This document shows, one piece after another, positions 13,822 to 33,866 of a stretch of 64,000 bases of DNA. The stretch covers positions 68,046 to 132,045 of the forward strand of contig JACPJN010000007.1 of NCBI GenBank assembly GCA_016187515.1. The letters run 5' to 3'. The notes beneath the pieces were generated by a model, which had not been told where the DNA came from, ran no database searches, and saw nothing but the letters and a program-made list of their open reading frames with translations. The DNA comes from Candidatus Uhrbacteria bacterium (lineage in GTDB: Bacteria; Patescibacteriota; Patescibacteriia; GWA2-47-26). The position numbers were made by a program, and so were the translations under genes. Within the stretch, counting starts at the first letter, position 1; each line of letters opens with the position of its first letter.

Positions 13822-16800
13822 TTAATCTAAGGCCGCCCCCTCCTCGACTAGCACTCCACCGGAAAGAGTGGAGATGTTGCACTGATTGTCACAATAGGTA
13901 CAGCCCACTAAACCATAGCCCGGCGTACACCGAGTCCCATTGGAAGTTCCTTCATCACATTCCTCTGGATCAGTACACCGGCCACGACCGCAATCCTGGT
14001 CGCGCCGACAGGTCACGCCGTCACGATTACGATCGCCAGTGCCCACACACACCAGTCCCTGATTGAATCCGTCGCCACATTTTGCGTGCTTGCAGTCGTT
14101 AATGCAGCCATCCGCATTTTCCGCCGCATCGTTTTGCCCGTCGTTCGTGGTTCCATCGTCACACTGCTCATTTCCTTCGCGCGCGCCATTGCCGCATTGT
14201 CCTTGGGCAACTGTAGTGAGACCGCCCCAACGACATGGACCACCACTACGGCAGGCCTGCCGCCAGAGATACGGGTAGCCCTCGGGCTCTGTAAACTGTT
14301 GACTGTCATAAACATGCGTTCCATCCCACTGGATTGGCCCAGTAAATTTACAGCTACCAAATGACGTATCGCAATCAGAATCTTGGCGGCAGGGCTTTCC
14401 AAAATCCGAAGCCCCCCACACCCACATACACACCTGTGGACTCTGGCGAGTATCTCCCGCTTCGCACTGCTCATTCCACTCTTCCTGTATCTCATTGTCT
14501 CCGCACCGCGCCCCTGGCCCGGAGCAGTCAAACCGACAACACCCATAATCGCCATTGACACATGCTGCACCGCTGGAATTTGTAGAATCACATACTTCGG
14601 GTCCATTGCGCGTACCGTCGCCGCAATAGGCACTAAGTGCGGTTGCTGAACATTGACCCCACGGGAAACAATTATTATCCTCGGTGCAGATATTTCCCTG
14701 ATTAGGCCCCCCGATGCAGGTCCTAGCGCATACCGTATTGCACTTGCCATACTGACCATTTAACAGCCCATCATCACATACTTCGCTTCCTTCTCTTATG
14801 CCATTACCGCAGATTACGCCGCCTTGGCATATGTCAAGGTTGGATGTCGGGTTTTGGGATCCACCCCATATTTGCCAGTCAGTCACCTGCGGAGCATCAT
14901 TCCACTCGCACCTATTCGTGCACGCCCGTACTGCCTGGCACTGCGATGAAAGAATACAAACCCCTTCATTGTCAGCGCAGTTTTCATCATTAACACACTC
15001 CTTCGAAGGATTCAAACTGCATGAACGCAACGGAACACATGAAGAACCTCTCGCATGCAACGTACAGGTTGAACCAGAATCTGGGAACCTTGGGGCTGTT
15101 GATATTACCCCGGTTTCTGGATTACACCTTTGCCGAAATCCCCCCTCAAAGGGGGCACCAGGGTCACCACAGTATCCAAACCAACGGGCTTGCTGGACCT
15201 CTTCCTGCCCCACTTCGCAGAATTCCTGGCAATTATTCACCCCGCACGAAACCCCGGGATAATTTGCGCAGGTTCCGTCCGGGAGACATTCACCACGTTC
15301 AAGAATTCCATTGCCGCAGGTCGCCGTGGCATTGGACCATAATCCCCCGGCTGGCGCGCCCGGCGCGCTCACCCAGGAACAATTGCTCGGGGTTAGCAGG
15401 TTGGTTCCCGCCGGATCAAAATTAAACACTTCCCAGCGGCTCTGCCCGGGAGCTGGCGGACGATACAGCAGTTCAAAATCTACGCCCAATTCATAGTCCA
15501 CTGCCCCAATCGCGCGATACTGATACACGTGGGATCCAGCCGGACAGCGGTAGGTTTGGGTCTGTTCATTCCAGCAAGTCGCGGGATCAAATTGCCCGCG
15601 CTCGCCTGGAATCGCGGCACAGCCCGGCGCGAAGCTATTGAGCGGATCTTGCGGCAAGGAGGCGCCCAATGTTGCGCCAAGCGTGGCCTGCCAAGAAGGC
15701 CATTTGGAGGTGGACATGGAACGGATAAAAGTGCCGGCCTGAAGCGGCGGATAGCGTCCGTGAGTATTGCGGTAATCCTCCAGTGCGGATTGTATCGAAC
15801 TGATATGATTTAAACGCAATAGATCTCGGCGCAGCTTGTCTCGGTTGGAGTTCTCGACATTCACATTAAGCTGGAAGTTGGAAACAAACTGGTCAAACAC
15901 TTGCTGCATCGCGCTGGGCGCGTTTTCAGAAAGCGAAAGCACGTAGATATTGCTGTACACTACTTTTAATGTGGGGACGTACCTATCAGTAACCGCGTTT
16001 GTGCCAGCGACATACACCGTATTCCGGTCCCGGATCGCCTCATAACCATCCACCCCGGGATTAATTGGCGCCGGAGTTCCAGTAAAGCCCATTTGCTCAT
16101 ACCAAGTTCTGACCGGCAAACGCCTCGGGTTTGGAAATACCCGAATTCCAATGGCCTGCTGTTTTTCTGCTGATTCAACCAAAAGATACTCCTTCAGCGG
16201 AGCAGGGCCAGTATGGCTGGTGGCGATACGGAAGGTGTCCAAAGTAACCGGCGCACCCTCGTCCGCGCCTGCCGCGGGAGGACGAATCGCGCCCGGGTAA
16301 ATTAAAGCCGGCAAATCGCCTGCGAGGCCCTCCTCACCACTGTCGCGGCAGTACCAAGTGCGAAAATTCATGGGGTCTCCTCCGCCAAGGAGTGCGCCTT
16401 CGCGATCCTCAAACCGCGGCAAGGGGTGCTCAATACGCGATGGCCAGGGATTTTCGCACAGCGTGGTAATAAATTCCGCGCTCCCCTCGCGCACCGCGTC
16501 CTGATGATCCTCCGGCTGCGGAAGCGCGCTGGCGTCAGTAATTGTGGCAGTGGCATTCACGTCCGTCTCGCCATTGCGATTCCCGGCAGTTACGGTTTGA
16601 TCTGGATCAGCGTTGATCGGATCCGCAGCGTTGATGGGATCCGGCTCATTGGTAACGCTGGCCACGGTATTTTCCGCTGATCTCCAGGACCAGGCCCAGG
16701 AATATCCGGTTGTCCGCTGCAGCGCCTGCCCGCTGCTGGAGAGCGCCTCGGCCCGAACTTGGGCCTGCTGCCCGGGACGAGAAAAACCCGCGCCGCCTTC

Positions 16801-19800
16801 TCCTTCAAAAATGCTCACCGCTTCATCCGCGCCAGTTACGTTAACGCGCACGTTTTCCACGGTACAGATCTCGGATCCGGTAGTGAAGTTCCAACTTGAA
16901 TCTGTTCCGCCTTCGGCAGCGGGACCGCGGAAGGCCACGCCGAAAATCGAGCGCACTCCAGAAGCGATCAAATCATTAAGGTTCGGGTCGCCAGCAATGG
17001 TGATCTGATAATCTGTCGCGTTATCCAAAATCCGCGAAGGTTGCAGGACTAAACGACTCCCCTGTGCTGCCGATTCAACCGACGCCTTTAAGCTCAAGGA
17101 CGGATCAGCGCACCACACCGAATTTCTTGCCCGGCCCTGAAGAGTCAGGCCATCCGGACACGTCGCAGTGTTTTCAACACGCTTGGCAATTCCGATCGCT
17201 TGATCAAGATTTGCGGAATCCATGGGTTGATCAAAAGTTACTTCCAAAAGTCCATTGGGACAGGCGTCTGGCGTATTGATGCCCGGCACGCGCTCCACAA
17301 TTTTCGGGCGAAGATAACAACAGTTGTCGCTCCCGCGGCCCACGGCCTCGGATGGCCCTTGTCCGGGCGTTGGACAATCGGCTTCGCTGCGGGCCACGCA
17401 AAATACGGTAATACTGGCGCTGCCCGGCGCGCCCGCTTGTCCCTCCACCGCCGCCTCTACCGCCACCGTACTCCAAGGATTAGGCGGAGCGCAGACCGGA
17501 AAATTCTCATCCGTACAATTGCCATTGCTGCTACAGGGCGCGCGCGGTTCCTTAAATTCTCCGGTCTCTTTGCGGCAGAACTTCCGAATCCCCAAGGCCC
17601 TGGCTTGCTGAATTGGATCAATGCGCCGAGGCGACTCCGCAACCGTCCCTTCATTAAGACAGCGCGCGGAACAGCCGTCTCCGGCAGCCGTATTGCCATC
17701 ATCACAGTCCTCAAAACGATCAATCCTCCCATTGCCGCAAAACGGCGAAGGAGTTCCTTCATTAAGACACCGGGATGAACAGCCATCGCCATTGGCGCGA
17801 TTATTTAACTGATCGCATTCTTCACCGGCCTCCACTAATCCGTTGCCGCAGGTGGAAACCGGAAGAGTGCCTTTTAAAAGACACGTGGCTGGGTCGCAGA
17901 ATTCCGAAAGAAGGGGGGCACCTAAAAGGTCGCGGTAACGCTGCTGGTCTTCGGGATCACATTCTTCCCCGCGATCAATCTGCCCGTTTCCGCAAGTAGT
18001 CGCCCGAGAAGTCCCTTCATTCCGACACTGCGTAGAGCAGCCATCGCCCGGTAAAACATTGCCGTCGTCGCAATCCTCGCCATTTCCGGGTTCCGGGTCT
18101 CCGCCACTGCCGCAGCAATTGGTTTGCTCCGGAGCGACACAGCGCGCCAGCGCTCCGGCGTGCAGACAACTCGCGGTGCACCCGGGCAAGCCGGGCGGGT
18201 CGCATTCCTCGCCCGGATCAATAATACCATTCCCGCAGGCGAATCTTCCGAGAATTCCCGCGCTGGATCCCTCGTTTAAACACTGCGCTAAACAGCCATC
18301 GCCATCTATTAAATTTCCGTCATCGCAATCTTCCGCGTATTCCCGCACCCCATTGCCGCAGGAAGGCAAACGATCCACTCCGGTCCGCACTACTCCGGCA
18401 ATCATGGTATTGCCCACCACGCCGGCGACCCGATCATCTTCTTCAAGTTCCGGATCGTCAATCTTCCAACCCCAATCGTAGGACAGCGAATTTAAGCGCT
18501 GGCCCTGCGGATCGCAGGCATCCGGAGCGCTCCGCGGCTCCGCGGAAAAACTCGCGCGCGCGCCGATAAGATAGAGCGCGGCTTGCGGAGGGCTTAATTC
18601 CACGCGATCAACCTGACAGGATGACGCGCCGGTTTTAAAGGTCCAAGAAAAAGTATTGCACTGCGCGCCCGCGCACTTCCCTGGCCCGGGAGCGAGCATC
18701 GCTCCGGTTATCGCGTCACGGCCGGCCCAATTGTAGGAAAAGTTCAGTCCGGCCAGCGGCTTGCCCGGTACGGAGCTGTCGCGGCGGCTTGAATGTAGGC
18801 CAGCGCTGCCGCCTTTGAGTAAAACCCGATAAAAAGTATTGGGCAGTAAGAGATCTTCTCGCGCCGAGGTGGCCGGGTTATCGGTAAGTCCGATCTCCAG
18901 GGTATTTTCTGCGCTCTTCCAAGAAAGTGCGGGGCTCAAAACTCGCTCCGCCAAGCGGCCGGGTTTAAGACAGCGGACGGTGCAGAGCGGATCACGCTCG
19001 CCCCCATCGCAACCGATATCTTCGCCATTGTCCAGCACGCCATTGCCGCAAAGCGCGGGTTCGGATCCCTCGTTTAAGCACTGCGGTAAGCAGCCATCGC
19101 CGGAAAGGCGATTGCCATCATCACAATCTTCCGCGTACTCGCGCAAACCATTGCCGCATTGCGCGAAACGCGTTCCTTCATTAAGACAATTGGGGGAGCA
19201 GCCATCGCCCGCGTTGGTATTGCCGTCATCGCAATCCTCCGCTTCCGAGGCAAGGATCCCATCGCCGCAAGCCGGTACTGACCCGGCGGCAATTGAACCT
19301 TCATTAACACATACTTCGGAACAGCCGTCTCCGGGCCGCAGATTGCCGTCATCGCAGTCCTCGCCCAGTTCAATGCGGCCATTGCCGCAGCCCTGACCTC
19401 CGGCGGAAGAGGGACGACGCGTGCCGGTCCACTGACAAATACTGGTGCAGAGATTGCGCTTGGCCGGGGTGTTTAAAAGCGGCGAATTAGGGTCGCACTC
19501 CTCGCCCGGATCAATCTGGCCATTGCCGCAAAGCAGCGGACTTACCGGATTGCCCCGCCTTAAACAGTCCTGCGGATCGCACCACGACGCAAATTCGTGA
19601 TCAAAATTCACTTCACATTCCTCGCCCGCTTCCAAACGGCTATTGCCGCAAACCGCGAAGTTCGAACTGGTCCCCTCGCGAAGGCATTGCGCGGAACAGC
19701 CATCTCCGGCTTGTCGATTCCGATCATTATCACACTCCTCACCCGGATTAATTTTACCGTTTCCACACAGCGCGGGTCCGGTTCCCTCGTTTAAACACTG

Positions 19801-22800
19801 CGACGAACAGCCATCGCCGTTTTCCAGGTTGCCATCATCACAATCTTCTCCGCGGTCAAGACAGCGGCCGCCTTGGCAGCTCTCTCCTGGCCCGCACTCG
19901 GAAGCATTGCGGCACGCCCGTCCGTCTCCGCAGCGCAGAGAAAAGTTTGATCCCTCATTAAGACAAACTGCGGAACAGCCGTCTCCGGAAGTCGTGTTGC
20001 CATCATCACACTCTTCTCCCGTCTCCACGCTGCCATTGCCGCAAGGCACGGCCCAGAGTAACGCGTTTTGAACATTGGTCACGCTTTGGGGATGCAAAGT
20101 GTTTGAGGAGGTAAACATGGCCACATTAAACCGCGCGGCAATCTTGGCGTTGGTACAGGCCTCTCCGCAAGCCGGCCACCATTGTATTACTTGCGGGTCC
20201 ATAAATGAAATCTTGAGCTTCCCAAAACCGGTGGTCCGTGGGGGCTGCGGCGGAGTATGCGCGCGGACTCTGATCTCTTCGCCTTGGGTGTCTTCCAAGG
20301 CAATTACGGTTACGGTCCAGGGCATGTGCTTACAATACCCTCCAACACAGGCCTCGGTCACGCAAGTATTGGGCTGACCGCCGCAGTCGGCATCTACCTG
20401 GCACGGCGCGTCGTAATTGTTGGAACAATGGCTGTACCCGATCGCGCACTCCGCGTCTTCACTACAGGCCTTGCCGATCGCCGGGGAAATTCCGCTGGAA
20501 TTATAAGTAACCGCCGCGCGCTCCGGATTCTCCGTATCATAGACATCCCAGGCCCACGAATAGTCGTCCGACGACGGCACTACGCAAGGATCGTCAAGCG
20601 CCACGGGAATTGCTAAATAATCAATCGGCTCATTTTCCGTAGTGGCCTCATAAGGGCTGGGCACCACCGCGATCCCGCCGACTTGACAAAGATTATTGTC
20701 CGGATTGGACTCGTTTTTGGTTTGAAACGCAAAACAGTACGCGGCGCGCGCGTCTCCGCAGCGGGATAAGCCGTCTGGAAGCGGGATCATGGGCTGGCCT
20801 TGAAGAGCGCCGCGATCTTGCGCGGTAATTCCTCCGGTCCCGCCCAAAAGTACCACGCGATACCAGGAACCGGCTGAAAAATTATCCGACAGCCAGAAAC
20901 TAAATCCTAATCCGCCGGAATACGGCCCAAATTTACGGCCGAGCGCCTGATCTTCAACTTGGCTGCAGGCCTCCCCTTCAATCTGGACATCATCAACATA
21001 AACCGCGAAGTCCTCTCCGGAACTCGCCTCCTCGCCAACCTCATAAGGATCGCCTTCCAAAAATACGCGCACATAGCCGGGAGCATTGCCATTAGGACTG
21101 GCATCAAAGGTCATGGTTACCGACACCGGCTGCCACTCATTGGTGAGCGTAATTTCGGACCGAACTTTTTGCCAAAAACCACGGGTGGCCAGACAGGTCC
21201 TTTGTCCGGCATTGGTTTGGCTCGCGCACCCGGTGTCCGCAGTACAAGCCACTCCGCCGGATATTCCGCCGCAACGCATTCCGTCAGCGCCGCCCGCGCG
21301 TTGAATTAAAATTCCGGCGCGCTTCCCCGCCCCCGCGGCATCAACCGCTTTCATCCACGCGGTTGCCGTATATATTTTCCCGCTGGTATCGGCAATGGCA
21401 TTGGCTTGGTACCCAAACCAATGCTCATAATTTTGTTGCAGTCCGCGAGTATCTCTCCATCCTGGGCCGGTGTCGTTGTCCAGCTTGGTAAGGGCGAGCG
21501 CAAAATTGCCCGGATCCGCACTAGAAGCGCCGCGCCCAGCGCCTAGCACGGTTTCCACCCCCAACAAATCCTCGTGGCGAAGGTTTGTCGGCGGATCCAG
21601 CGTGGGCTCTGGCGGGCGGCCCCACACGGCAGTATCCGCGGTGAAATTCGGACTTCCAAAAGTGGTGTCCGCGCCATTCAACAGTTCGGTCGGCGCCGTG
21701 CACTTTTGGAGCTTAATCGTCTGCGAATTTAAGGTCGCCGGATCAACCCGGGCGTCCGGATTAAAACTCACTGCCACGGCCGCGTTAACGCATACTCCGG
21801 TATTTGATCCTCTTCCGGATTCGACAGCCGGCGACGGCGAAGGCGGATATTGCGGAAAACCTTCCGCGTCGGCTGCTTTATCGCATCCTTCAAACACCGT
21901 CGGGGTAAGCGGGGCCTGGGAGGTGGTAAACTGCCAAGCAAACGCGGACTCCCCGGGCTGCGCGCCAGCGCAGTCCGCCCTACAAGTTCCGTCTCCACAG
22001 CAAGTCAGACCTCCGAGCGCGGCGCAATCCAAGCGCGCTTCATCAGGGGCCGGCAACCGGCAATCACCAACCAAAAACGTCCGCAAATTCGAAGCGCGCG
22101 TGATCTGGCCTCCTCCAGCTTGCGGAAAATCATTTTGTATAATTACCTCTCCGGCTGGAGTCCCAGCCACGGTGTTTCCGGGCACTTGCGCGCATACTTC
22201 TTGCGCGTCCCAGCCACCGCGCGGACAAGCATCCAAACGGATACCTCCGACATTGGTGAGCGTGGCCGGTAAAGTCGGCGCCCAGGACTGATCCGCGGAA
22301 CTCCTGCGCGCCGTAAATAGCGCCCCGCGGCCGGAAGCCGGCGCGGATCCAAACCGATCTCCAAAAATGCTGACATTGGTAAACGTTGGGCCGGAGGCCG
22401 GCTCAATACAAGCTAAAAATGGCGCGGCTGACTCTTGATCTAAAACATCAAAATCCTTGGGACTGGACTGCTGACGATCATAACGCTGCACATAAAGGTA
22501 GGCGCCATCATCAAAAAGAAGATCGGAGGCGCTGCCATCTTCATCCGCGTCGTGGATATCCAAAATGCGCGGCACTTTAACCGTGATCTGTATTGGACTC
22601 CACCAACTGCTCCCGCATTGCGAAGGAAAGTCCACGTTTCCCTGCACTCCTCGCCCATCGGAAGTAACAAACCAAACCATTCCGGGGGTATCGCCGAAAT
22701 TCCGTCCGGAAATGGTGCACCCGGCCCCTGGCCCGCCGCGCGCCGGATTATCTTCCGGCGCGCCCGCGCAAACTACCGTCGTAATAATTGGCAAAGTGCC

Positions 22801-24813
22801 GGCATCCGGAGAAAGCACGGTAAAGGGAAGGGCGTTGGAGGGAACTTTTTCGGTGTTTTCAACTTGCACCTGGGTTGGGCCAAATGCCAGCGCCGGCACG
22901 CGGCTTAAAATGGCAGTCGCGGACCAGGCGTCCACGGCGCCCGGCTGTCCGCCAAACCGCGCTTGCGCCCGCAGAATCTGCTTGCCCAGGCGGCGGGTCT
23001 GCTCGCCAAACTGCACACCGGTAATATTCACTGGCGCATTCCAAAGCCCGGCGATTGGATTCACGCTGCAAATCCCGGGGTGCTCCACCTCGTTTACTTC
23101 AAATAAACCGGTCGGAGTTGACGATCCGCGCGGCGGGGGATGAACCGGAACGATCGGGCCCCGCGAGTCATTGCTGGTGTCGCGGCACAGATTATCATTG
23201 TCCGCACACCCATCAGCGACCACCGTAACCGGCCCGACCTGCGCGCCCTCCGGAAGACCGACTAAAATATAATTATCAGACCAGGTCGTGTTACCCGCGC
23301 AGGCCTCCGGAGCTTGAGCGCGGACTCCGTTATGGAAAAATGCCGCGCCCGGGGTCTGGCCAAAATTTAATCCGGCGACCGTCACGAGTGTCCCGGCTTT
23401 ACCGTCTCCCGGAGAAATGCCGGTAATCGTCAAGGGCGTAGTGCACTCTTTATCTCCATCACCATCTAGATCCGTGCAAACCCCGCCGGAACATTGGATA
23501 TTATCCGTACAACTGCTGCCGTCGCACAATCCGCAGCCGGAGGGGCCGTCTGCCGCGCTATCGCAATTCGGCCCATCTTCATCATCATCTTGAAGCGGGA
23601 ACCCTAACTGGTCGCGATTAAAGCAGTGACTGGGACGGACGATCACCCGCACCGGAGCAGACCATACCGCGTTATCATCAATATCAAAAGCGCGCGCGCG
23701 CAACTGATGCTGGGCCGGAGCCGGCGGATTCGCCGGAAAACATGGTAAGGTTAAAATAATTTCCAGCGGATAAGTGCCTTCCGGCGGAGTAAGCAGGCCG
23801 TCTAGAAGTGCCGTCCCATCCGCATAGATTTCCACGTGCTCCACTCCCCCATCATCTTTGACTCTGACCTGAACCGGCACGCAAGTGTCCACTTCCACTG
23901 CCGCGCCGTCATCCGGCGACTCAATAGTTACTTCCGGCGGCGCCACATCAATAATACTTCCCGAACGAAACTCTACCCGACAAGTTGGCGCAAATCCGCC
24001 GCAAAGCAAATCCCGGCCATCAAAGCGTTTGACGCCGTCCGCCCCGTCTCGGATCTGCACCACAAATTCAGTATCCGCGTCAAAACAGCGCCGATCTTGA
24101 TTCGGTTCCGGACACGCCGCGGATGGGCGCAATTCTACGATATTGCCAACCACGGCCGCCGGCTCCAAGGCAACCGCTGCGCCGCTGTCTTTGCGCGTAA
24201 GGTTCAGATTTCCGGCCAGGGTCTCCGGGTCGGGCGCGCCGCTAAAAAATACCCGTACCACAATGTTGCGAATCGGCACCGCTCCGGAAGGGGCAATGCG
24301 CCGCACGATAAACGCGTCGGACGGTAAAAACGGGCAATCCGGTCCGGGACAGCGAACATCCGCGGGAATCGTGAGCGGCCCTCCGGCCGCTAACTGTAAA
24401 CGATTCAATACGAATTGGACAATTCCAAACGCCGAAAGAATAATCGCGAGTCCAATCACGGAATTAACCAGCACTTTTTTGGCCTTGTCAATTTGCTCTT
24501 CATTGCCGGCCGAAGTCAGCCATAAAAAACCGCCGTAAAGAATCAAGGCCACGGCCACCAGACCGAGAAAACCCAGCGCCACGCGAATGATGCGCGCCAC
24601 AATCACTCGCGGATCAGCCGTGGGCAAAATCAGTCCGGCTTGCCCGGGAACCGCCGCGATCTCTGCGCCGGTTTGAATCTGGGAAGGCAGCGGCACGCCT
24701 TGAGCCAGCGCCGTCGGAATGGAGAATGCAGAATGAAGAATGAAGAATAAGAAAATCACTACAAACCAGCGAAATATCCATCGGCAATGTTCAATCCGGC
24801 ATTCTAAATTCAT
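13822..24813 (-). CDS. Giant 3663-aa surface protein: N-terminal CPR pilin-like TM domain, Ig-like/IPT domains, many DUF4215-type Cys-rich repeats, pseudopilin-like segment
   Basis: GGFLWLTSAGNEEQIDKAKK; repeated CGNG..E.GE.CDDGN...GDGCS..C; RDLLRL.HI..IQSALEDY....GRYP. Confidence 0.85.
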   Translation of the reverse strand: MNLECRIEHCRWIFRWFVVIFLFFILHSAFSIPTALAQGVPLPSQIQTGAEIAAVPGQAGLILPTADPRVIVARIIRVALGFLGLVAVALILYGGFLWLTSAGNEEQIDKAKKVLVNSVIGLAIILSAFGIVQFVLNRLQLAAGGPLTIPADVRCPGPDCPFLPSDAFIVRRIAPSGAVPIRNIVVRVFFSGAPDPETLAGNLNLTRKDSGAAVALEPAAVVGNIVELRPSAACPEPNQDRRCFDADTEFVVQIRDGADGVKRFDGRDLLCGGFAPTCRVEFRSGSIIDVAPPEVTIESPDDGAAVEVDTCVPVQVRVKDDGGVEHVEIYADGTALLDGLLTPPEGTYPLEIILTLPCFPANPPAPAQHQLRARAFDIDDNAVWSAPVRVIVRPSHCFNRDQLGFPLQDDDEDGPNCDSAADGPSGCGLCDGSSCTDNIQCSGGVCTDLDGDGDKECTTPLTITGISPGDGKAGTLVTVAGLNFGQTPGAAFFHNGVRAQAPEACAGNTTWSDNYILVGLPEGAQVGPVTVVADGCADNDNLCRDTSNDSRGPIVPVHPPPRGSSTPTGLFEVNEVEHPGICSVNPIAGLWNAPVNITGVQFGEQTRRLGKQILRAQARFGGQPGAVDAWSATAILSRVPALAFGPTQVQVENTEKVPSNALPFTVLSPDAGTLPIITTVVCAGAPEDNPARGGPGAGCTISGRNFGDTPGMVWFVTSDGRGVQGNVDFPSQCGSSWWSPIQITVKVPRILDIHDADEDGSASDLLFDDGAYLYVQRYDRQQSSPKDFDVLDQESAAPFLACIEPASGPTFTNVSIFGDRFGSAPASGRGALFTARRSSADQSWAPTLPATLTNVGGIRLDACPRGGWDAQEVCAQVPGNTVAGTPAGEVIIQNDFPQAGGGQITRASNLRTFLVGDCRLPAPDEARLDCAALGGLTCCGDGTCRADCAGAQPGESAFAWQFTTSQAPLTPTVFEGCDKAADAEGFPQYPPSPSPAVESGRGSNTGVCVNAAVAVSFNPDARVDPATLNSQTIKLQKCTAPTELLNGADTTFGSPNFTADTAVWGRPPEPTLDPPTNLRHEDLLGVETVLGAGRGASSADPGNFALALTKLDNDTGPGWRDTRGLQQNYEHWFGYQANAIADTSGKIYTATAWMKAVDAAGAGKRAGILIQRAGGADGMRCGGISGGVACTADTGCASQTNAGQRTCLATRGFWQKVRSEITLTNEWQPVSVTMTFDASPNGNAPGYVRVFLEGDPYEVGEEASSGEDFAVYVDDVQIEGEACSQVEDQALGRKFGPYSGGLGFSFWLSDNFSAGSWYRVVLLGGTGGITAQDRGALQGQPMIPLPDGLSRCGDARAAYCFAFQTKNESNPDNNLCQVGGIAVVPSPYEATTENEPIDYLAIPVALDDPCVVPSSDDYSWAWDVYDTENPERAAVTYNSSGISPAIGKACSEDAECAIGYSHCSNNYDAPCQVDADCGGQPNTCVTEACVGGYCKHMPWTVTVIALEDTQGEEIRVRAHTPPQPPRTTGFGKLKISFMDPQVIQWWPACGEACTNAKIAARFNVAMFTSSNTLHPQSVTNVQNALLWAVPCGNGSVETGEECDDGNTTSGDGCSAVCLNEGSNFSLRCGDGRACRNASECGPGESCQGGRCLDRGEDCDDGNLENGDGCSSQCLNEGTGPALCGNGKINPGEECDNDRNRQAGDGCSAQCLREGTSSNFAVCGNSRLEAGEECEVNFDHEFASWCDPQDCLRRGNPVSPLLCGNGQIDPGEECDPNSPLLNTPAKRNLCTSICQWTGTRRPSSAGGQGCGNGRIELGEDCDDGNLRPGDGCSEVCVNEGSIAAGSVPACGDGILASEAEDCDDGNTNAGDGCSPNCLNEGTRFAQCGNGLREYAEDCDDGNRLSGDGCLPQCLNEGSEPALCGNGVLDNGEDIGCDGGERDPLCTVRCLKPGRLAERVLSPALSWKSAENTLEIGLTDNPATSAREDLLLPNTFYRVLLKGGSAGLHSSRRDSSVPGKPLAGLNFSYNWAGRDAITGAMLAPGPGKCAGAQCNTFSWTFKTGASSCQVDRVELSPPQAALYLIGARASFSAEPRSAPDACDPQGQRLNSLSYDWGWKIDDPELEEDDRVAGVVGNTMIAGVVRTGVDRLPSCGNGVREYAEDCDDGNLIDGDGCLAQCLNEGSSAGILGRFACGNGIIDPGEECDPPGLPGCTASCLHAGALARCVAPEQTNCCGSGGDPEPGNGEDCDDGNVLPGDGCSTQCRNEGTSRATTCGNGQIDRGEECDPEDQQRYRDLLGAPLLSEFCDPATCLLKGTLPVSTCGNGLVEAGEECDQLNNRANGDGCSSRCLNEGTPSPFCGNGRIDRFEDCDDGNTAAGDGCSARCLNEGTVAESPRRIDPIQQARALGIRKFCRKETGEFKEPRAPCSSNGNCTDENFPVCAPPNPWSTVAVEAAVEGQAGAPGSASITVFCVARSEADCPTPGQGPSEAVGRGSDNCCYLRPKIVERVPGINTPDACPNGLLEVTFDQPMDSANLDQAIGIAKRVENTATCPDGLTLQGRARNSVWCADPSLSLKASVESAAQGSRLVLQPSRILDNATDYQITIAGDPNLNDLIASGVRSIFGVAFRGPAAEGGTDSSWNFTTGSEICTVENVRVNVTGADEAVSIFEGEGGAGFSRPGQQAQVRAEALSSSGQALQRTTGYSWAWSWRSAENTVASVTNEPDPINAADPINADPDQTVTAGNRNGETDVNATATITDASALPQPEDHQDAVREGSAEFITTLCENPWPSRIEHPLPRFEDREGALLGGGDPMNFRTWYCRDSGEEGLAGDLPALIYPGAIRPPAAGADEGAPVTLDTFRIATSHTGPAPLKEYLLVESAEKQQAIGIRVFPNPRRLPVRTWYEQMGFTGTPAPINPGVDGYEAIRDRNTVYVAGTNAVTDRYVPTLKVVYSNIYVLSLSENAPSAMQQVFDQFVSNFQLNVNVENSNRDKLRRDLLRLNHISSIQSALEDYRNTHGRYPPLQAGTFIRSMSTSKWPSWQATLGATLGASLPQDPLNSFAPGCAAIPGERGQFDPATCWNEQTQTYRCPAGSHVYQYRAIGAVDYELGVDFELLYRPPAPGQSRWEVFNFDPAGTNLLTPSNCSWVSAPGAPAGGLWSNATATCGNGILERGECLPDGTCANYPGVSCGVNNCQEFCEVGQEEVQQARWFGYCGDPGAPFEGGFRQRCNPETGVISTAPRFPDSGSTCTLHARGSSCVPLRSCSLNPSKECVNDENCADNEGVCILSSQCQAVRACTNRCEWNDAPQVTDWQIWGGSQNPTSNLDICQGGVICGNGIREGSEVCDDGLLNGQYGKCNTVCARTCIGGPNQGNICTEDNNCFPWGQCSATALSAYCGDGTRNGPEVCDSTNSSGAACVNGDYGCCRFDCSGPGARCGDNEIQEEWNEQCEAGDTRQSPQVCMWVWGASDFGKPCRQDSDCDTSFGSCKFTGPIQWDGTHVYDSQQFTEPEGYPYLWRQACRSGGPCRWGGLTTVAQGQCGNGAREGNEQCDDGTTNDGQNDAAENADGCINDCKHAKCGDGFNQGLVCVGTGDRNRDGVTCRRDQDCGRGRCTDPEECDEGTSNGTRCTPGYGLVGCTYCDNQCNISTLSGGVLVEEGAALD

Positions 24814-29791: not shown

Positions 29792-29862
29792 AAAACCAAA
29801 ACCCCGCTTGCGCGGGGATTGGAAAAACTCTACAGGTTTGCAGTTTGCCCGGTTTGTCAACC
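29792..29862 (-). ncRNA. Small partner RNA A (5' end complementary to tRNA-like RNA A; possible tmRNA-like mRNA domain)
   Basis: GGUUGACAAACCGGGC-AAACU-GCA AAC CUG UAG...CCCCGC-GCAA-GCGGGG-UUUU; bounded by own promoter and terminator. Confidence 0.7.
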
Positions 29863-29868
29863 ATTATT

Positions 29869-29897
29869 ACCATACCACGGTTGCCATAGTATGTCAA
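29869..29897 (-). promoter_or_regulatory. sigma70 promoter of partner RNA A
   Basis: TTGACA (29897-29892), 17 nt, TG-n-TATGGT (29874-29869); predicted +1 at G29862. Confidence 0.75.
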
Positions 29898-29922
29898 GTA
29901 TCAGTTATCCCCATAGGGGCAC

Positions 29923-29991
29923 TGGAAGTGCGGGGAATTGAACCCCGAGAGCCCTGGCTGACAAACCGGGCTCTGCGAACCTGCCACTCCC
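29923..29991 (-). ncRNA. tRNA-like RNA A (tmRNA tRNA-like-domain type, Ala identity)
   Basis: Acceptor GGGAGUG/CACUUCC+A with G3.U70; T-arm CGGGG-UUCAAUU-CCCCG; no D-stem (GCAGGUUCGC); arm AGAGCCC/GGGCUCU with 13-nt loop; CCA not encoded; extended -10 TGGTAAACT at 30012-30004. Confidence 0.8.
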
Positions 29992-30181
29992 AATGCCGTG
30001 CATAGTTTACCACACATGCACAAACGTCACTACCTTAAATGCTCACTTTTTCTTTCGCCCGTACACGCCAAGTTTGCCACCGCTCGCTTTTCCGCCTCTC
30101 GAGCCACCGCGCATACCATTCGGTTCAGTGGCACCCGCACACTCGGCGGACTTCGCCAGTCGAGATGTACTGCCACGAGAA

Positions 30182-30661
30182 TCACTTCGACTTTTTCTTC
30201 CCGTAAACGCCAACTTTGCCGCTAGCGGCTCGCATAAAATCCTTGGTCTTCATCTCCAGCGAGTCGGTGTAGGTTCCGGCGCCGGCGATCACCCGCTTGG
30301 CACGGGAAAACGCGCGATCCACCAGGACTTCGGCGCCTTTGTACAGTCCGCCAAACGCGGTTAGCGCTCCGGCCTTAACCTTAAACGCTTTCGCCATTAC
30401 TTTCTCCGAGGCCAGTTCCACTTTTTTCGCCTTAAGCGCGGCCTTCAACTTTGCGAAATCCACCTGATACGAGGCCGGTACGACCACAATAATGTGCCGC
30501 TTTTTGTCCGCCACCACATGCAGGACCTTGGGAATCTCATTAAGCTTGGCTTTCATTGTAGCGGCGGCATCATAGGCAGTGTACACGGTTTTGTGCACAA
30601 TCGGCTTGGCTTTGATTTTTAGCGCGGCAAGATAGTTAGTAACTTTTTTTGATATGGCCAT
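30182..30661 (-). CDS. YbaK/EbsC/ProX family aminoacyl-tRNA deacylase
   Basis: H..VYTA..AA, IPK.L, VVVPA...VD..KL, GAL..FG, AGT.TDS. Confidence 0.85.
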   Translation of the reverse strand: MAISKKVTNYLAALKIKAKPIVHKTVYTAYDAAATMKAKLNEIPKVLHVVADKKRHIIVVVPASYQVDFAKLKAALKAKKVELASEKVMAKAFKVKAGALTAFGGLYKGAEVLVDRAFSRAKRVIAGAGTYTDSLEMKTKDFMRAASGKVGVYGKKKSK

Positions 30662-30764
30662 AGTTATTTTGTGTACGAATTACGAATCTTGCACGAATAT
30701 TACGAATGTGTACTCAATTCAAATTCGTTGTATTCGCAATGTCATTCGTTGATTCGTACACAGA

Positions 30765-33131
30765 TTACTTCAATGCGACCTTTAATACTTCGTCCATATT
30801 CTCCGCAAAAATAAACTTCAGCTCTTTCTTCACCTGGGAGGGCACGTCCACCATGTCCTTTTCATTGTCTTTGGGCAGGAGCACGGCGGTCATCTGCCCG
30901 CGGTGCGCGGCAATCACTTTTTCTTTGACTCCTCCGATTTCCATAACTTTTCCGCGCAGCGTAATCTCGCCGGTCATGGCCACGTCTTTGCGCACCGGTC
31001 TTCCGGTAAGCGCCGAGATTAAGGCGAGCGTCATGGCCACTCCGGCGGAAGGGCCGTCTTTGGGGATCGCGCCGGAAGGGACGTGCACATGGAGATCGGA
31101 ATTTTTGTAAAACGCGTCTTTGATCGCGAGTTTCTTGGCCCGGCTGCGCGCGTAGGTAAACGCGGCTTGCGCCGACTCCTGCATCACCTGTCCCAGATGT
31201 CCGGTTAAAATCAGCTGGCCCTTGCCCGGCACTTTGGTGGCCTCAATATGGAGCACATCTCCTCCCGCCGAGGTCCAGGCCAGGCCGTTTACCACCCCAA
31301 CCTCGTCCTCTTTTTCCGCCATGGTAATCCGGTACTTTTGCGGTCCCAAAAATTCGCGCAAATCATCAATGCCGATTTTTCGAAGCGCCAGCTTTCCTCC
31401 GTTTTCCGCCACTTTGCGCGCTACTTTCCGGCACACCGCGGCAATCGTCCGCTCCAACTCCCGCACTCCGGCCTCCAGCGTGTACTCGCGGATAATCACG
31501 CGCACCGCCGCTTCTGTAAATGAAATAAGTTTGTCAGTCAGGCCATTATCTTTTATTTGCTTCGGTATTAAAAACTTTTGCGCGATCCAATATTTTTCAT
31601 CTTCGGTGTAACCGGCAAATTCAATAACTTCCATGCGGTCTTTGAGCGCGGGTGGGATCGGGTCCAGCAAATTCGCGGTGGTAATAAACATCACGTCGGA
31701 CAAATCAAACGGCACCTCCAGATAATGGTCGGAAAACGCGTTGTTCTGCTCCGGATCAAGCGCCTCCAAGAGCGCCGCCGAAGGATCCCCGCGAAACGCG
31801 TCAAATCCCATTTTATCCACCTCATCCAGCATAAATACCGGATTGCGCGTTCCGGCAGTGGCCACGCCTTGGACAATCCGTCCCGGAAGCGCCCCGACAT
31901 AGGTGCGCCGGAACCCGCGGATTTCGGCTTCGTCCCGCACCCCGCCAAGCGACATGCGGACAAATTTGCGGCCCAGCGCTCGCGCGATTGATTTTCCAAT
32001 GGAGGTCTTTCCGGTTCCGGGCGGCCCGACAAAACATAGAATTGGCCCGCGAATTTTCCCCACGAGTTTTTGCACGGAAAGATATTCCACCATGCGTTCT
32101 TTTACCTTATCCAAGCCAAAGTGATCGTCGTCAAGCACCTGCTGTGCTTTTTTCACGTCAATTGCGGATTCATCCTTCTTTGACCAAGGGAGCTTTACCA
32201 ACCAATCCAGATAAGTGCGAATGTAGGAGATCTCGGGCGAAAACGACGGCATCCGTTCAATCCGCGCCAGTTCTTCCAGCGCGACTTTTTTTGCCTCCTG
32301 CGTCATGCCGGCTTTTTCAATTTTATCTTTGAGCTCTTCCGCCTCATTGCGCCCTCCGGCCATGCCCAGTTCTTTTTCAATCGCTTTAAGCTGTTCGCGC
32401 AAAAACACTTCGCGCTGCATTTTGTCCAGCTCCTTGCCAACTTCGGCCTGCAGTTTCCGAGCTTGACGAAGCACTTGCGCTTGTCGTCCCAGGGCTTGAC
32501 GCAGCACTTCCAGTTTATTCTCAACCGTCACGGCTTCGAGAATCGCTTGGCGCTCCTCGACCTTAAACTCCAGGTTACTGGCAATCAGATCGCCCAAGAC
32601 CCAGGGATCGGTAATATTCAAAATTACGAAAAGGACATCCAGGGGCACCGGCGCGCCCATCGATACGATCTCGCGAAATTGATTGATCGCGGAATACATG
32701 AGCGCTTCGATTTTTTCGGTCTTTTTTATAAGCGGCGGCGGCAGGGGCTCCAGGCGGACCCGCACAAACGGATCTTCGTGCACAATGCTAATGCCCTTGG
32801 CGCGCATCACCCCTTCAATAAGCACGCGCACCGCGCCGTCTTCCGCGCGGTTCATTTCCTTGATCTTGCCGATAACGCCGACCGCGTACATATCCGCCAT
32901 GGTCGGCTTGTCATGCTCTTCGGTTTTTTGCGCGACAAAAAAAGCCAGGTGATCGTGCTTCATGGCAAAGTCCAGCGCGGCGAGCGATTTAGGACGCTGC
33001 ACTAAAATCGGGAGCGCAATTCCCGGAAACACCACGGCATCGCGAAGCGCCACGAGCGGCAATTCGCGTTTATCTTTTACCGACTGAAAGGTCTTCACAA
33101 ATTTTGGAATAGGAGGTTGAATATCGGGCAT
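30765..33131 (-). CDS. lon: ATP-dependent protease La
   Basis: LON N-domain, [30 protein letters not shown]. Confidence 0.97.
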
Positions 33132-33211
33132 AGATTTGAGTAAATTAAGTAAAGCAAGTAAATCAGGTGAATCAAGTGCTTGATTTACTTGTCTCGCTTG
33201 ATTTACTTGAT

Positions 33212-33505
33212 TTACTTCAACGGCAACTTCTGTTGTTCTCCCTGCAATCTCTTGGCCGCCTTGCGCCCAGCCGGGGTCAACCGCACCTCTTTAATATACC
33301 ACCTTTTCGGAGTTCTGACACCTATCCCTATGAGTAACCCTTTATCAATCAGCCGTTCCAGCGTCTTGGTTACCGTATCCACCACGTCTTTATGCTTCAC
33401 CACCTTTCCTTCGTAAAACTTATGCAACGGCGCCCGCCCCACTTTCCCGCGCGCTGCAAGACACACCCCCAAAACATAGCGTTGAAGTGCTGAAAGGCGC
33501 AACAT
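33212..33505 (-). CDS. Small winged-helix-like hypothetical protein
   Basis: TKTLERLIDKGLL...VRLTPAGR. Confidence 0.65.
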   Translation of the reverse strand: MLRLSALQRYVLGVCLAARGKVGRAPLHKFYEGKVVKHKDVVDTVTKTLERLIDKGLLIGIGVRTPKRWYIKEVRLTPAGRKAAKRLQGEQQKLPLK

Positions 33506-33564
33506 ACCATTACCAGTATATCACATCCATCTGATGTATGATAAAATATCAGACCCGGTGTGGC

Positions 33565-33637
33565 GGGCCGTTGTGTCCGGTGACCAAGGATGCCTATCAA
33601 ACATCCTAGAGGGGTCCGACTCCCCTACGGTCCACCA
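33565..33637 (+). ncRNA. tRNA-like RNA B (Ala identity, CCA encoded)
   Basis: Acceptor GGGCCGU/ACGGUCC+ACCA with G3.U70; T-arm AGGGG-UCCGACU-CCCCU; at most a 3-bp D-stem; arm AGGAUG/CAUCCU with 9-nt loop; extended -10 TGATAAAAT at 33539-33547. Confidence 0.82.
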
Positions 33638-33660
33638 CCGGGTTTGTGGATAAACAATAC

Positions 33661-33689
33661 TTGACAAAATTTAACGCATTTGCTAGAAT
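33661..33689 (+). promoter_or_regulatory. sigma70 promoter of partner RNA B
   Basis: TTGACA-17 nt-TAGAAT with TG extension; predicted +1 at ~G33696. Confidence 0.8.
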
Positions 33690-33695
33690 ATAATT

Positions 33696-33759
33696 GTTTG
33701 ATAGGCATCCTAGTCGCTGGGATCTCGGATCCCAAACAGGAGCCCCGCAAGGGGCTTTT
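33696..33759 (+). ncRNA. Small partner RNA B (5' end complementary to tRNA-like RNA B)
   Basis: GUUUGAUAGGCAUCCU-AGUC-GCU, internal hairpin UGGGAUC/GAUCCCA, terminator AGCCCC-GCAA-GGGGCU-UUU. Confidence 0.72.
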
Positions 33760-33866
33760 GTGTTATAAAAATGTCCTATTTCATGGTCTTGACAGGGGTT
33801 GGCTATTGTGTTATCATTAAAGCACGAAAGTCGTTCTTCAACCCAGAGCAAGGAGGCAAGGTAATC

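Follow-up and report, generated by a model that had tools for sequence, protein, structure and literature searches.

Two RNA Genes at Each Locus

What do two short intergenic loci of a Candidatus Uhrbacteria bacterium encode, given that their parts follow the same order and their sequences differ? Both lie in the 64,000 nt of contig JACPJN010000007.1 analyzed here (positions 68,046 to 132,045, or G000:C6:68046-132045, where G000 is the host genome of 1.2 Mb in 10 contigs); this whole stretch is referred to as the window. An earlier note described at each locus a tRNA-like gene with a separately promoted partner RNA and read the two as a split transfer-messenger RNA (tmRNA). All the parts are confirmed at both loci, and the separate promotion of the two RNAs, the alanine identity (G3·U70, A73, and T-arm), and the cognate, co-varying pairing are supported. 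As far as sequence analysis can tell, each locus is an independent two-gene RNA module (Table 1). The fallback reading of the same note, a tRNA mimic with a cognate antisense regulator, that is, an RNA-only toxin–antitoxin (TA) pair or a switch, is probably right. We consider it somewhat probable that the module is an RNA-only TA pair, in which an Ala-charged tRNA would corrupt decoding by missense, frameshift, or stall and would be silenced by an anti-anticodon RNA.

Table 1. Window coordinates of the parts of both modules and of the genes between them.
Feature	Position	Strand	Remarks
Extended -10 promoter-like site (TGn + TAAACT) of gene A	30004..30012	-	Predicted
Precursor A	29918..29997	-	6-nt 5′ leader pairs with A73 and trailer; acceptor stem extended to 13 bp (fold)
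Mini-tRNA A, 69 nt to A73	29923..29991	-	7-bp acceptor, G3·U70, 5-bp T-arm
Anticodon GUC (Asp) of A	29960..29962	-	Loop with U33 and A37
Sigma-70-type promoter of partner A	29869..29897	-	TTGACA-17-TATGGT, 10/12
Partner RNA A, ~70 nt	29794..29863	-	Promoter, pairing, terminator
YbaK/ProX-family editing-domain gene (PF04073)	30182..30661	-	Neighbor, outside the module
Lon protease gene	30765..33131	-	Neighbor, outside the module
Extended -10 promoter-like site (TGn + TAAAAT) of gene B	33539..33547	+	Predicted
Precursor B	33552..33644	+	5′ leader pairs with 3′ trailer, most of the CCA end covered (fold)
Mini-tRNA B, 70 nt to A73, then encoded CCA	33565..33637	+	G3·U70 acceptor, T-arm
Anticodon AUC (Asp) of B	33596..33598	+	7-nt loop with U33 and A37
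DnaA-box-like 9-mer	33645..33653	+	Just 5′ of the partner -35 box
Sigma-70-type promoter of partner B	33661..33689	+	TTGACA-17-TAGAAT, 11/12
Partner RNA B, ~65 nt	33695..33760	+	Promoter, pairing; internal hairpin

The mini-tRNA of locus A lacks a connector, a variable loop, and an encoded CCA; it has a 2-bp D-stem and a long anticodon arm in which a 3′ A is bulged. Its acceptor resembles the ssrA ends of the same genome. The partner RNA begins with 17 bp of complementarity, one of them G·U, between positions 29863-29847 and the anticodon loop with the 5′ stem strand (29971-29955). This is followed by 11 further base pairs with the D-arm (29843-29832 with 29984-29973), a terminator stem (29817-29802), and a U-run. 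The cofolding gain is -19 kcal/mol for the own pair and -0.2 kcal/mol for the swapped pair. Two of 20,000 random genome windows pair equally well, and the lowest of them is a near-perfect complement, probably the locus itself.

Mini-tRNA B has a 2-nt connector, a 3-bp D-stem, and a long anticodon arm. Its pairing with the start of the partner is complete (17/17 bp, 33695-33711 with 33587-33603), and nine further base pairs are formed with the D-arm (33713-33721 with 33576-33584). A terminator-like hairpin (33741-33756) precedes four T; the terminator scan did not call this hairpin. The cofolding gain is -21 kcal/mol for the own pair against -3.7 kcal/mol for the swapped pair, and none of 20,000 random genome windows pairs equally well. 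The 9-mer in front of the partner promoter, which we take to resemble a DnaA box, is found in only 14 of the 85 modules whose partner lies downstream in tandem. According to the earlier note, the tRNA-like genes have no normal D-arm and carry a long arm in place of the anticodon arm. The D-arm is indeed not normal, but a tiny one exists (2–3 bp, with a GG-containing loop); the long arm exists as well, but its tip is an anticodon-shaped loop.

The acceptors of B and of one copy in the family genome G003 are those of family-genome tRNA-Asp, save for positions 70 and 73, which suggests that B-type genes may have descended from tRNA-Asp through an identity switch. A73 and G3·U70 are not part of the aspartate identity. 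The module is unlikely to be a stand-in for a missing tRNA-Asp, as normal tRNA-Asp was found in three of the five family genomes searched; in one of these three, G004, it occurs together with modules. Intact tRNAs for Asp, His, Gly(GCC), Glu(CUC), and Arg(ACG, UCU) were not found in the G000 assembly, and its tRNA-Asp is present only as a 5′-truncated piece, C6:62928-62986 (-), behind a ribosomal-protein-like gene and followed by a partial repeat.

When checked against known families, the two loci were not assigned to any: ARAGORN makes no call anywhere in the window, and all Rfam matches in it stay below the gathering score of their family. The sub-threshold scores are 23.2 bits for tmRNA (gathering score 47; the best E-value) and 25.6 bits for mascRNA at A and 22.6 bits for tRNA-Sec at B, for which tmRNA is not listed. 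Neither A nor B has the properties of a canonical tRNA (RF00005 or ARAGORN call, U8, full D-loop, 5-bp anticodon stem, and variable loop).

A Third Module in the Host Genome

A third module, G000:C7:88769-88954 (+), has its partner upstream of the tRNA gene (C7:88882-88954). This gene has a canonical cloverleaf (RF00005, 56.7 bits) with an alanine acceptor (G3·U70) and a GAU (Ile) anticodon; it is labeled tRNA-Ile by ARAGORN, and a normal tRNA-Ile(GAU) is also present in the genome. The partner, with the promoter TTGACA-17-TAGTAT, was sought, and then found, after the mismatch between acceptor and anticodon had been noted. The leader of this module can sequester the acceptor's 3′ strand. A whole-genome scan that ignored the acceptor revealed exactly three promoter-driven partners, namely those of A, B, and C7:88882-88954. 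The host genome also has AlaRS, RNase P RNA, RNase III, and a CCA/poly(A) polymerase-family gene. RNase P RNA matches twice above the cut-off (G000:C5:30832-31355 and C4:171301-171817), and so do RNase III genes (G000:C9:12285-12674 and C5:33022-33408). At G000:C4:323027-323117 (+), there is a tRNA-like fold of 91 nt that is not annotated; its variable arm is long, its acceptor has C3-G70, and its loop reads AUC. An antisense partner of this fold was not found.

Search for Family Members

Relatives were sought by DNA search (61 genomes), by T-arm/acceptor patterns run on 401 class genomes and 401 phylum genomes, by a covariance model, R1, built from seven sequences and run on 151 genomes, and by collection scans yielding 17 viral stretches and at least 121 genome stretches. 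R1 was used solely for candidate picking, since it also scores ordinary tRNAs (137 of the 151 genomes matched). Only part of the matches of R1 and of the class-genome pattern was fetched, and those of 68–72 nt or of odd appearance were chosen. The first viral pattern gave 31 stretches, mainly with ordinary tRNA-Ala and four oddities with no partner. blastn found no match for mini-tRNA B among annotated phages and none for mini-tRNA A among plasmids. Alanine identity of the acceptor was required in most searches, an RHC anticodon and A37 were required in the viral and genome collection scans, and the 7/5 acceptor branch was a selection criterion. The 336 distinct tRNA-like folds were sorted into 66 ordinary tRNA-Ala, 91 other ordinary tRNAs, and 171 genes combining alanine identity with a non-cognate anticodon or a non-canonical fold; eight folds were left out. 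The family counts include kin and are therefore not independent, and they are lower bounds because some variants, among them the B-site copies of G004 and G005, were not recognized by the T-loop filter.

The Long Arm as an Anticodon Arm

The loop that tips the long arm of the mini-tRNAs has the shape of an anticodon loop (U33, NNN, and A37). Judging by the predicted folds, the long arm is an anticodon arm on an alanine acceptor, with identity and anticodon in disagreement. A fair sample of anticodons is provided by the phylum-genome pattern, which ignores the loop; six automatic calls were corrected by eye. In this sample, an RNC anticodon is present in 30 of 38 members (GUC 12, GAC 9, AUC 4, AGC 2, GCC 1, ACC 1, and GGC 1), whereas 12.5% would be expected for random triplets, with kin among the members not being independent. 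The remaining anticodons are GAU (twice), GUA, ACG, GCG, UUC, AAG, and an unclear one, and most of these members have a loop that looks normal for Ile, Tyr, Arg, Leu, or Glu. The codons at which such tRNAs would enter the ribosome are abundant: in the long open reading frames (ORFs) of G000, GGC ranks 4th, GAU 6th, AUC 17th, and GAC 19th.

The distance from position 37 to the T-stem is 9–11 nt in the members, the same as in ordinary tRNA-Ala. A shorter D-arm goes with a longer anticodon stem, and the two stems together make up 11–12 bp in 65 of 125 members, a compensation reminiscent of the rule for odd mitochondrial tRNAs. A canonical D-arm is present in nine partnered members. The loop has 7 nt in 33, 8 nt in 33, and 9 nt in 23 of 125 members. 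Rfam, applied to 14 member loci, matched solely the six cloverleaf genes among them (the third copy and five others, 6/6 as RF00005), that is, as plain tRNA; the partner RNAs of the 14 loci had no Rfam match.

Cognate Partners across the Family

A complement of at least 12 bp that covers the anticodon was found within 350 nt of 126 of the 171 genes with alanine identity and a non-cognate anticodon or non-canonical fold, compared with three each of the 66 ordinary tRNA-Ala and the 91 other tRNAs. A promoter-first test was added to avoid the circularity of the gene-first search: promoters of at least 10/12 were taken, and the first 26 nt downstream were checked for pairing with the gene. Such pairing was observed for 74 of 96 module genes and for none of the 15 ordinary tRNA-Ala and 22 other tRNAs. 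In a control with an anticodon-free viral pattern, a single gene among the 67 ordinary viral tRNA-Ala had a promoter-led partner, as did one of 17 others. Related genomes had been proposed as a check, and cognate-specific pairs of tRNA-like genes and partners were found in many Patescibacteria.

Among the 126 partners, 85 lie downstream in tandem, 20 are convergent, 15 are located upstream, and 6 are divergent; the four layouts therefore point to two transcripts acting in trans. Pairing begins 5–8 nt past the -10 box in 77 of 96 partners. A terminator-like hairpin ends 113 of the 126, whose median length is 65 nt (range 42–90 nt). The pairs are specific: cross-pairing of at least 12 bp between members occurs in 117 of 15,750 combinations, and for co-resident modules, a threshold of -8 kcal/mol is reached by all 24 own pairs and by 6 of 36 crossed ones. 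At the same threshold, pairing of the partner's continuation is seen with the D-arm of its own tRNA-like gene for 83 of the 126 and with the D-arm of another member for 34 of the 126. An extended -10 box (TGnTAnnnT) is located 6–35 nt 5′ of 54 of 125 module genes versus 6 of 63 ordinary tRNA-Ala; module tRNA genes often have this box alone, and the partners have near-consensus promoters. Leader–trailer pairing lengthens the acceptor stem by at least two pairs in 70 of 126 members versus 6 of 66 ordinary tRNA-Ala, and CCA is encoded in only 49 of the 126.

Distribution and Gene Context

Members are present in at least 24 of the 401 phylum genomes, as determined with one narrow pattern (37 genomes matched; 8 with tmRNA only and 5 with ordinary tRNA only were removed). 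The titled records with such modules are mostly Patescibacteria. Partnered members were also found on four viral contigs and in records under the titles Vulcanimicrobiota, Gemmatimonadota, Baltobacteraceae, and Acidobacteriaceae; records with other titles may be mis-binned contigs. The viral contigs L381, L410, and L484 carry canonical tRNAs with an Ala-type acceptor and an Arg(UCU), Trp(CCA), or Leu(UAA) anticodon, with no partner within 350 nt.

The module distribution is patchy, site by site. In all three relatives read (G003, G004, and G005), the A site is empty. The B site is occupied by a different module, its partner being divergent, in G004 and by a tRNA-like gene in G005, for which the stretch read showed no partner; in G003, nothing is present there. 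One intergenic site is occupied in three family genomes.

The neighbors of 76 members with long flanks, the pair of the window itself being excluded, comprise 142 ORFs. They are unrelated housekeeping genes with no enrichment of phage or defence genes, and none of them contains a Lon or YbaK/ProX domain. Lon and YbaK are thus not conserved neighbors, and the A site is empty in relatives; the link to translation quality control previously drawn from these two genes is not borne out. Several modules lie between genes of the same pathway, such as purN/purD, pyrB/pyrD, and rmlB/rmlD (names inferred from Pfam). Nine of the 142 neighbors are synthetase genes, several of the same families, with no match to the anticodon.

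Several other features were observed in the window and the genome. Within 30041-30181 (-), the last ~45 nt of the ybaK-like gene are repeated in degenerate form (by eye), 90 nt past the stop codon; the stretch between the end of the gene and this copy recurs in other class genomes and has the look of an insertion scar. Positions 30666-30771 and 33135-33220 belong to two palindromic intergenic repeat families with several copies in the genome and the family. A 3663-aa protein with many cysteine-rich repeats is encoded at 13822-24813 (-), and its gene is preceded by a related ORF of 687 aa with a similar N-terminus. The 16S rRNA gene at G000:C6:303785-307071 (-) is over-long and is matched in two pieces, which suggests insertions.

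Proposed Mechanism and Alternative Explanations

The first gene would give a tRNA that keeps the features read by AlaRS, RNase P, and EF-Tu (G3·U70, A73, the GG of the D-loop, and the T-arm) and displays a non-alanine anticodon, mostly RNC (Asp, Val, or Gly), in a 7–9-nt loop. The second gene would give a strongly promoted RNA of 42–90 nt, the first bases of which are complementary to the anticodon loop together with the 5′ strand of its stem; in many cases, the D-arm is paired next. The precursor might be held by leader–trailer pairing and then matured and alanylated. The free tRNA would enter ribosomes at GNY codons and insert alanine, and longer-loop members would shift the frame or stall instead. 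A partner in excess would unfold the arm and probably hand the duplex to RNase III; once partner synthesis stops (module loss, phage shut-off, or stress), translation would be poisoned. Private pairs, several per genome, that occur patchily and combine a strong antitoxin promoter with a fold-back precursor have the look of antisense-controlled TA loci. We lean toward a module that works like an RNA-only TA system with a tRNA as the toxin, and we do not claim that it is one.

G3:U70 is the main AlaRS element, and natural tRNAs with G3:U70 insert alanine whatever their anticodon; in E. coli, G3:U70 allo-tRNAs insert alanine, and missense allo-tRNAs arrest and kill cells (PMC5389517). On a broader scale, we put forward a proposal that in our opinion could equally be right or wrong. 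Widespread natural "anti-tRNA" systems of about 250 bp with no protein would use a miscoding Ala-charged tRNA (in some cases with a four-base frame-shifting loop) as the toxin and an anticodon-masking antisense RNA as the antitoxin. They would serve as addiction or abortive-infection modules of genome-reduced Patescibacteria and some phages, with a specificity rewritten via a joint change of the anticodon arm and its complement.

Several observations weigh against the toxic tRNA. Only 33 of the 125 predicted loops have 7 nt, and most members have no variable loop, so entry into the ribosome is not assured. Some partnered members have alanine anticodons (AGC three times; GGC in L123 and L336), because of which they cannot be missense toxins, though their loops have 8–9 nt. 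Given these members and the two thirds of loops longer than 7 nt, frameshifting, stalling, or a decoy role may apply instead of pure missense. Alanine identity was built into most searches, and RHC and A37 into the collection scans. One partnered member, L128:1473-1540 (-), is the only one seen with no G3·U70 (it has G2·U71 and C3-G70), and its partner is intact. A partner of at least 12 bp within 350 nt is missing for 45 of the 171 genes, some of which are cut by a contig end, some have a bulged partner, and some are probably non-members. Among the 126 partnered genes, L227 (a tandem paralog) and L220 look false, and the match scored for L358 is not its true partner. As for the dominance of C36, an origin from tRNA-Asp or an A37 modification that is not needed are guesses. 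The partner of L336:1501-1569 (+), the anticodon of which is GGC (Ala), fits GAC better; possibly, this member was detoxified through an anticodon change.

The same anatomy would suit a switch for useful mistranslation, that is, low-level alanine misincorporation under stress instead of addiction or defence, and the stable position among housekeeping genes, with no phage or defence enrichment beside the modules, and the use of one intergenic site in three family genomes are in line with it. We regard this switch as rather unlikely, as the anticodons differ among co-resident copies and among relatives, the pairs are privately insulated, and most genomes searched show no module (24 of 401 have one by one pattern, a lower bound). 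A small chance can also be given to a decoy outside decoding, which would titrate SmpB, AlaRS, or EF-Tu or soak up an anticodon nuclease, with the partner as its off-switch. The best Rfam E-value of A is indeed that of tmRNA (23.2 bits, gathering score 47), its acceptor is ssrA-like, the Ala-anticodon members with 8–9-nt loops suit a role with no missense, and RNAs consisting only of the tRNA-like domain (TLD) inhibit tmRNA (PMC4131195, PMC11915505). However, SmpB replaces the anticodon arm, so binding to SmpB requires neither a D-stem nor a conserved anticodon-type loop (PMC4131195). Moreover, full-cloverleaf members exist, and the partner hits the anticodon loop in all scored cases; this holds by construction, but in the promoter-first test the 5′ end of the partner is also on the anticodon loop (by inspection).

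Three further explanations were considered. With its promoter, 5′ pairing site, hairpin, and terminator, it could be a leader under termination control, regulated by the tRNA-like RNA in the manner of C4 of P1/P7 and CI of P4, which are RNase P-processed antisense RNAs (PMC5499578). This is very unlikely: there is no common downstream gene, 20 convergent partners run at the tRNA gene, 15 upstream partners stop at the tRNA promoter, and the next gene at B owns an 11/12 promoter; in addition, alanine identity is not needed by such an effector, and C4 and CI have no T-loop equivalent (PMC5499578). A mobile or self-addressed element, with the complement serving as a targeting guide or left as a scar of duplication, might account for the patchy, site-swapping distribution and the extended leader–trailer stems, but its probability seems very low. 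The complement begins 5–8 nt past a -10 box in 77 of 96 cases and covers the anticodon arm, not the tail, with G·U wobbles typical of RNA pairing, and no complement is present at 37 ordinary tRNAs with strong promoters nearby. The split tmRNA, a closed tRNA-like domain with a trans-paired message, would explain the alanine identity, the tmRNA-like acceptor of A, the GCN codon ~20 nt past +1 in both window copies, and a duplex end that would sit near the elbow. It is extremely improbable and was rejected. An intact one-piece ssrA (112.8 bits), which the earlier note had wanted checked for, lies beside smpB at C6:64713-65732, ~3 kb before the window. Among the 96 partners with a clear promoter, GCN at +20 to +22 shows no enrichment (14 versus 16.0 ± 3.6 in shuffles), partners are as short as 42 nt, and members with a cloverleaf exist. 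The tmRNA-like "resume" context turned out to lie inside the second antisense helix and to be a D-arm complement (83/126 own versus 34/126 swapped); in three B-type homologues, the "resume" codon is ACU, AUC, or AUG, and the D-arm pairing is kept (by eye).

Significance

The two-RNA module is real, widespread, and apparently undescribed. A literature search with little coverage of subscription journals found no description of a tRNA under its own antisense RNA or of a tRNA as a TA toxin. The family escapes standard annotation, since ARAGORN misses members or labels them by anticodon (tRNA-Asp, -Ile, or -Ser), and it is frequent enough to be of importance (found in 24 or more of the 401 phylum genomes, with three copies in G000). 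If the preferred reading of a toxic tRNA and its antisense antitoxin is true, the modules would show that bacteria can naturally corrupt their genetic code in a switchable manner, and they would provide a minimal tRNA architecture to test against the ribosome and more than 100 natural, mutually insulated RNA switch pairs.

Comparison with Known Systems

C4 and CI RNAs target the leaders of protein genes. Like the RNAs of the modules, they are small processed RNAs with sequence-specific pairing to nearby complements, but they have no T-loop equivalent (PMC5499578). Rfam C4 has no match in the window or the 14 member loci, and the modules have no target in the leader of a conserved protein gene. 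With tmRNA, the modules share alanine identity (G3·U70, A73, and T-arm); the Rfam gathering score is not reached, there is no conserved resume codon with a tag frame, and an anticodon stem-loop is present. Closer in size (~65–70 nt) are the TLD-only (lacking a coding sequence) tmRNAs of phage DS6A and Mallomonadaceae plastids, which also have an alanine acceptor, a T-arm, and no message and for which an inhibitory role is on record (PMC4131195, PMC11915505). In contrast to them, the modules have a D-stem, an anticodon-type loop, a cognate partner RNA, and cloverleaf members.

The shape of the mini-tRNAs has counterparts among working tRNAs. M. alvus tRNA-Pyl lacks the connector between acceptor and D-stem, its D-loop has 4 nt, and its anticodon stem is longer and contains a bulged A; it shares with mitochondrial (mt) tRNA-Ser(UCN) a 0–1-nt connector, a small D-loop, and a lengthened anticodon stem (PMC7609411). 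Unlike the modules, both are cognate and have a 3-nt variable loop and a 6-bp anticodon stem (mostly 7–9 bp in the modules), and an antisense partner is not described in the available part of this source (PMC7609411). In allo-tRNAs, identity (Ser, or Ala via G3:U70) and anticodon disagree as well, and GUC is common; they are toxic in E. coli and found near TA loci (PMC5389517). The disagreement is found in the modules too, with the anticodon assigned from sequence, whereas the 8/4 or 9/3 acceptor branch of allo-tRNAs (PMC5389517) is not: the modules are 7/5, short, and mostly have no variable loop. The word "antisense" is absent from the main text of the allo-tRNA paper (PMC5389517).

Type VIII TA systems comprise an RNA toxin and an RNA antitoxin, and two kinds have been validated, creTA and SdsR-RyeA (PMC10767807, PMC8610362). 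They resemble the modules in being neighboring small RNA genes on the same or opposite strand, and in SdsR-RyeA, the antitoxin masks the RNA toxin via antisense pairing (PMC10767807, PMC8610362). Here, the putative toxin is a tRNA, the genes are non-overlapping, and there is no CRISPR effector; no sequence relation to type VIII systems was found (no Rfam match in the window and the 14 member loci). The modules do consist of adjacent RNA genes with no protein product, judging by the predicted promoters and terminators, and of computed cognate antisense pairs. If toxicity holds, they would formally constitute a third, unrelated type VIII family, in which both parts and the mechanism are still new.

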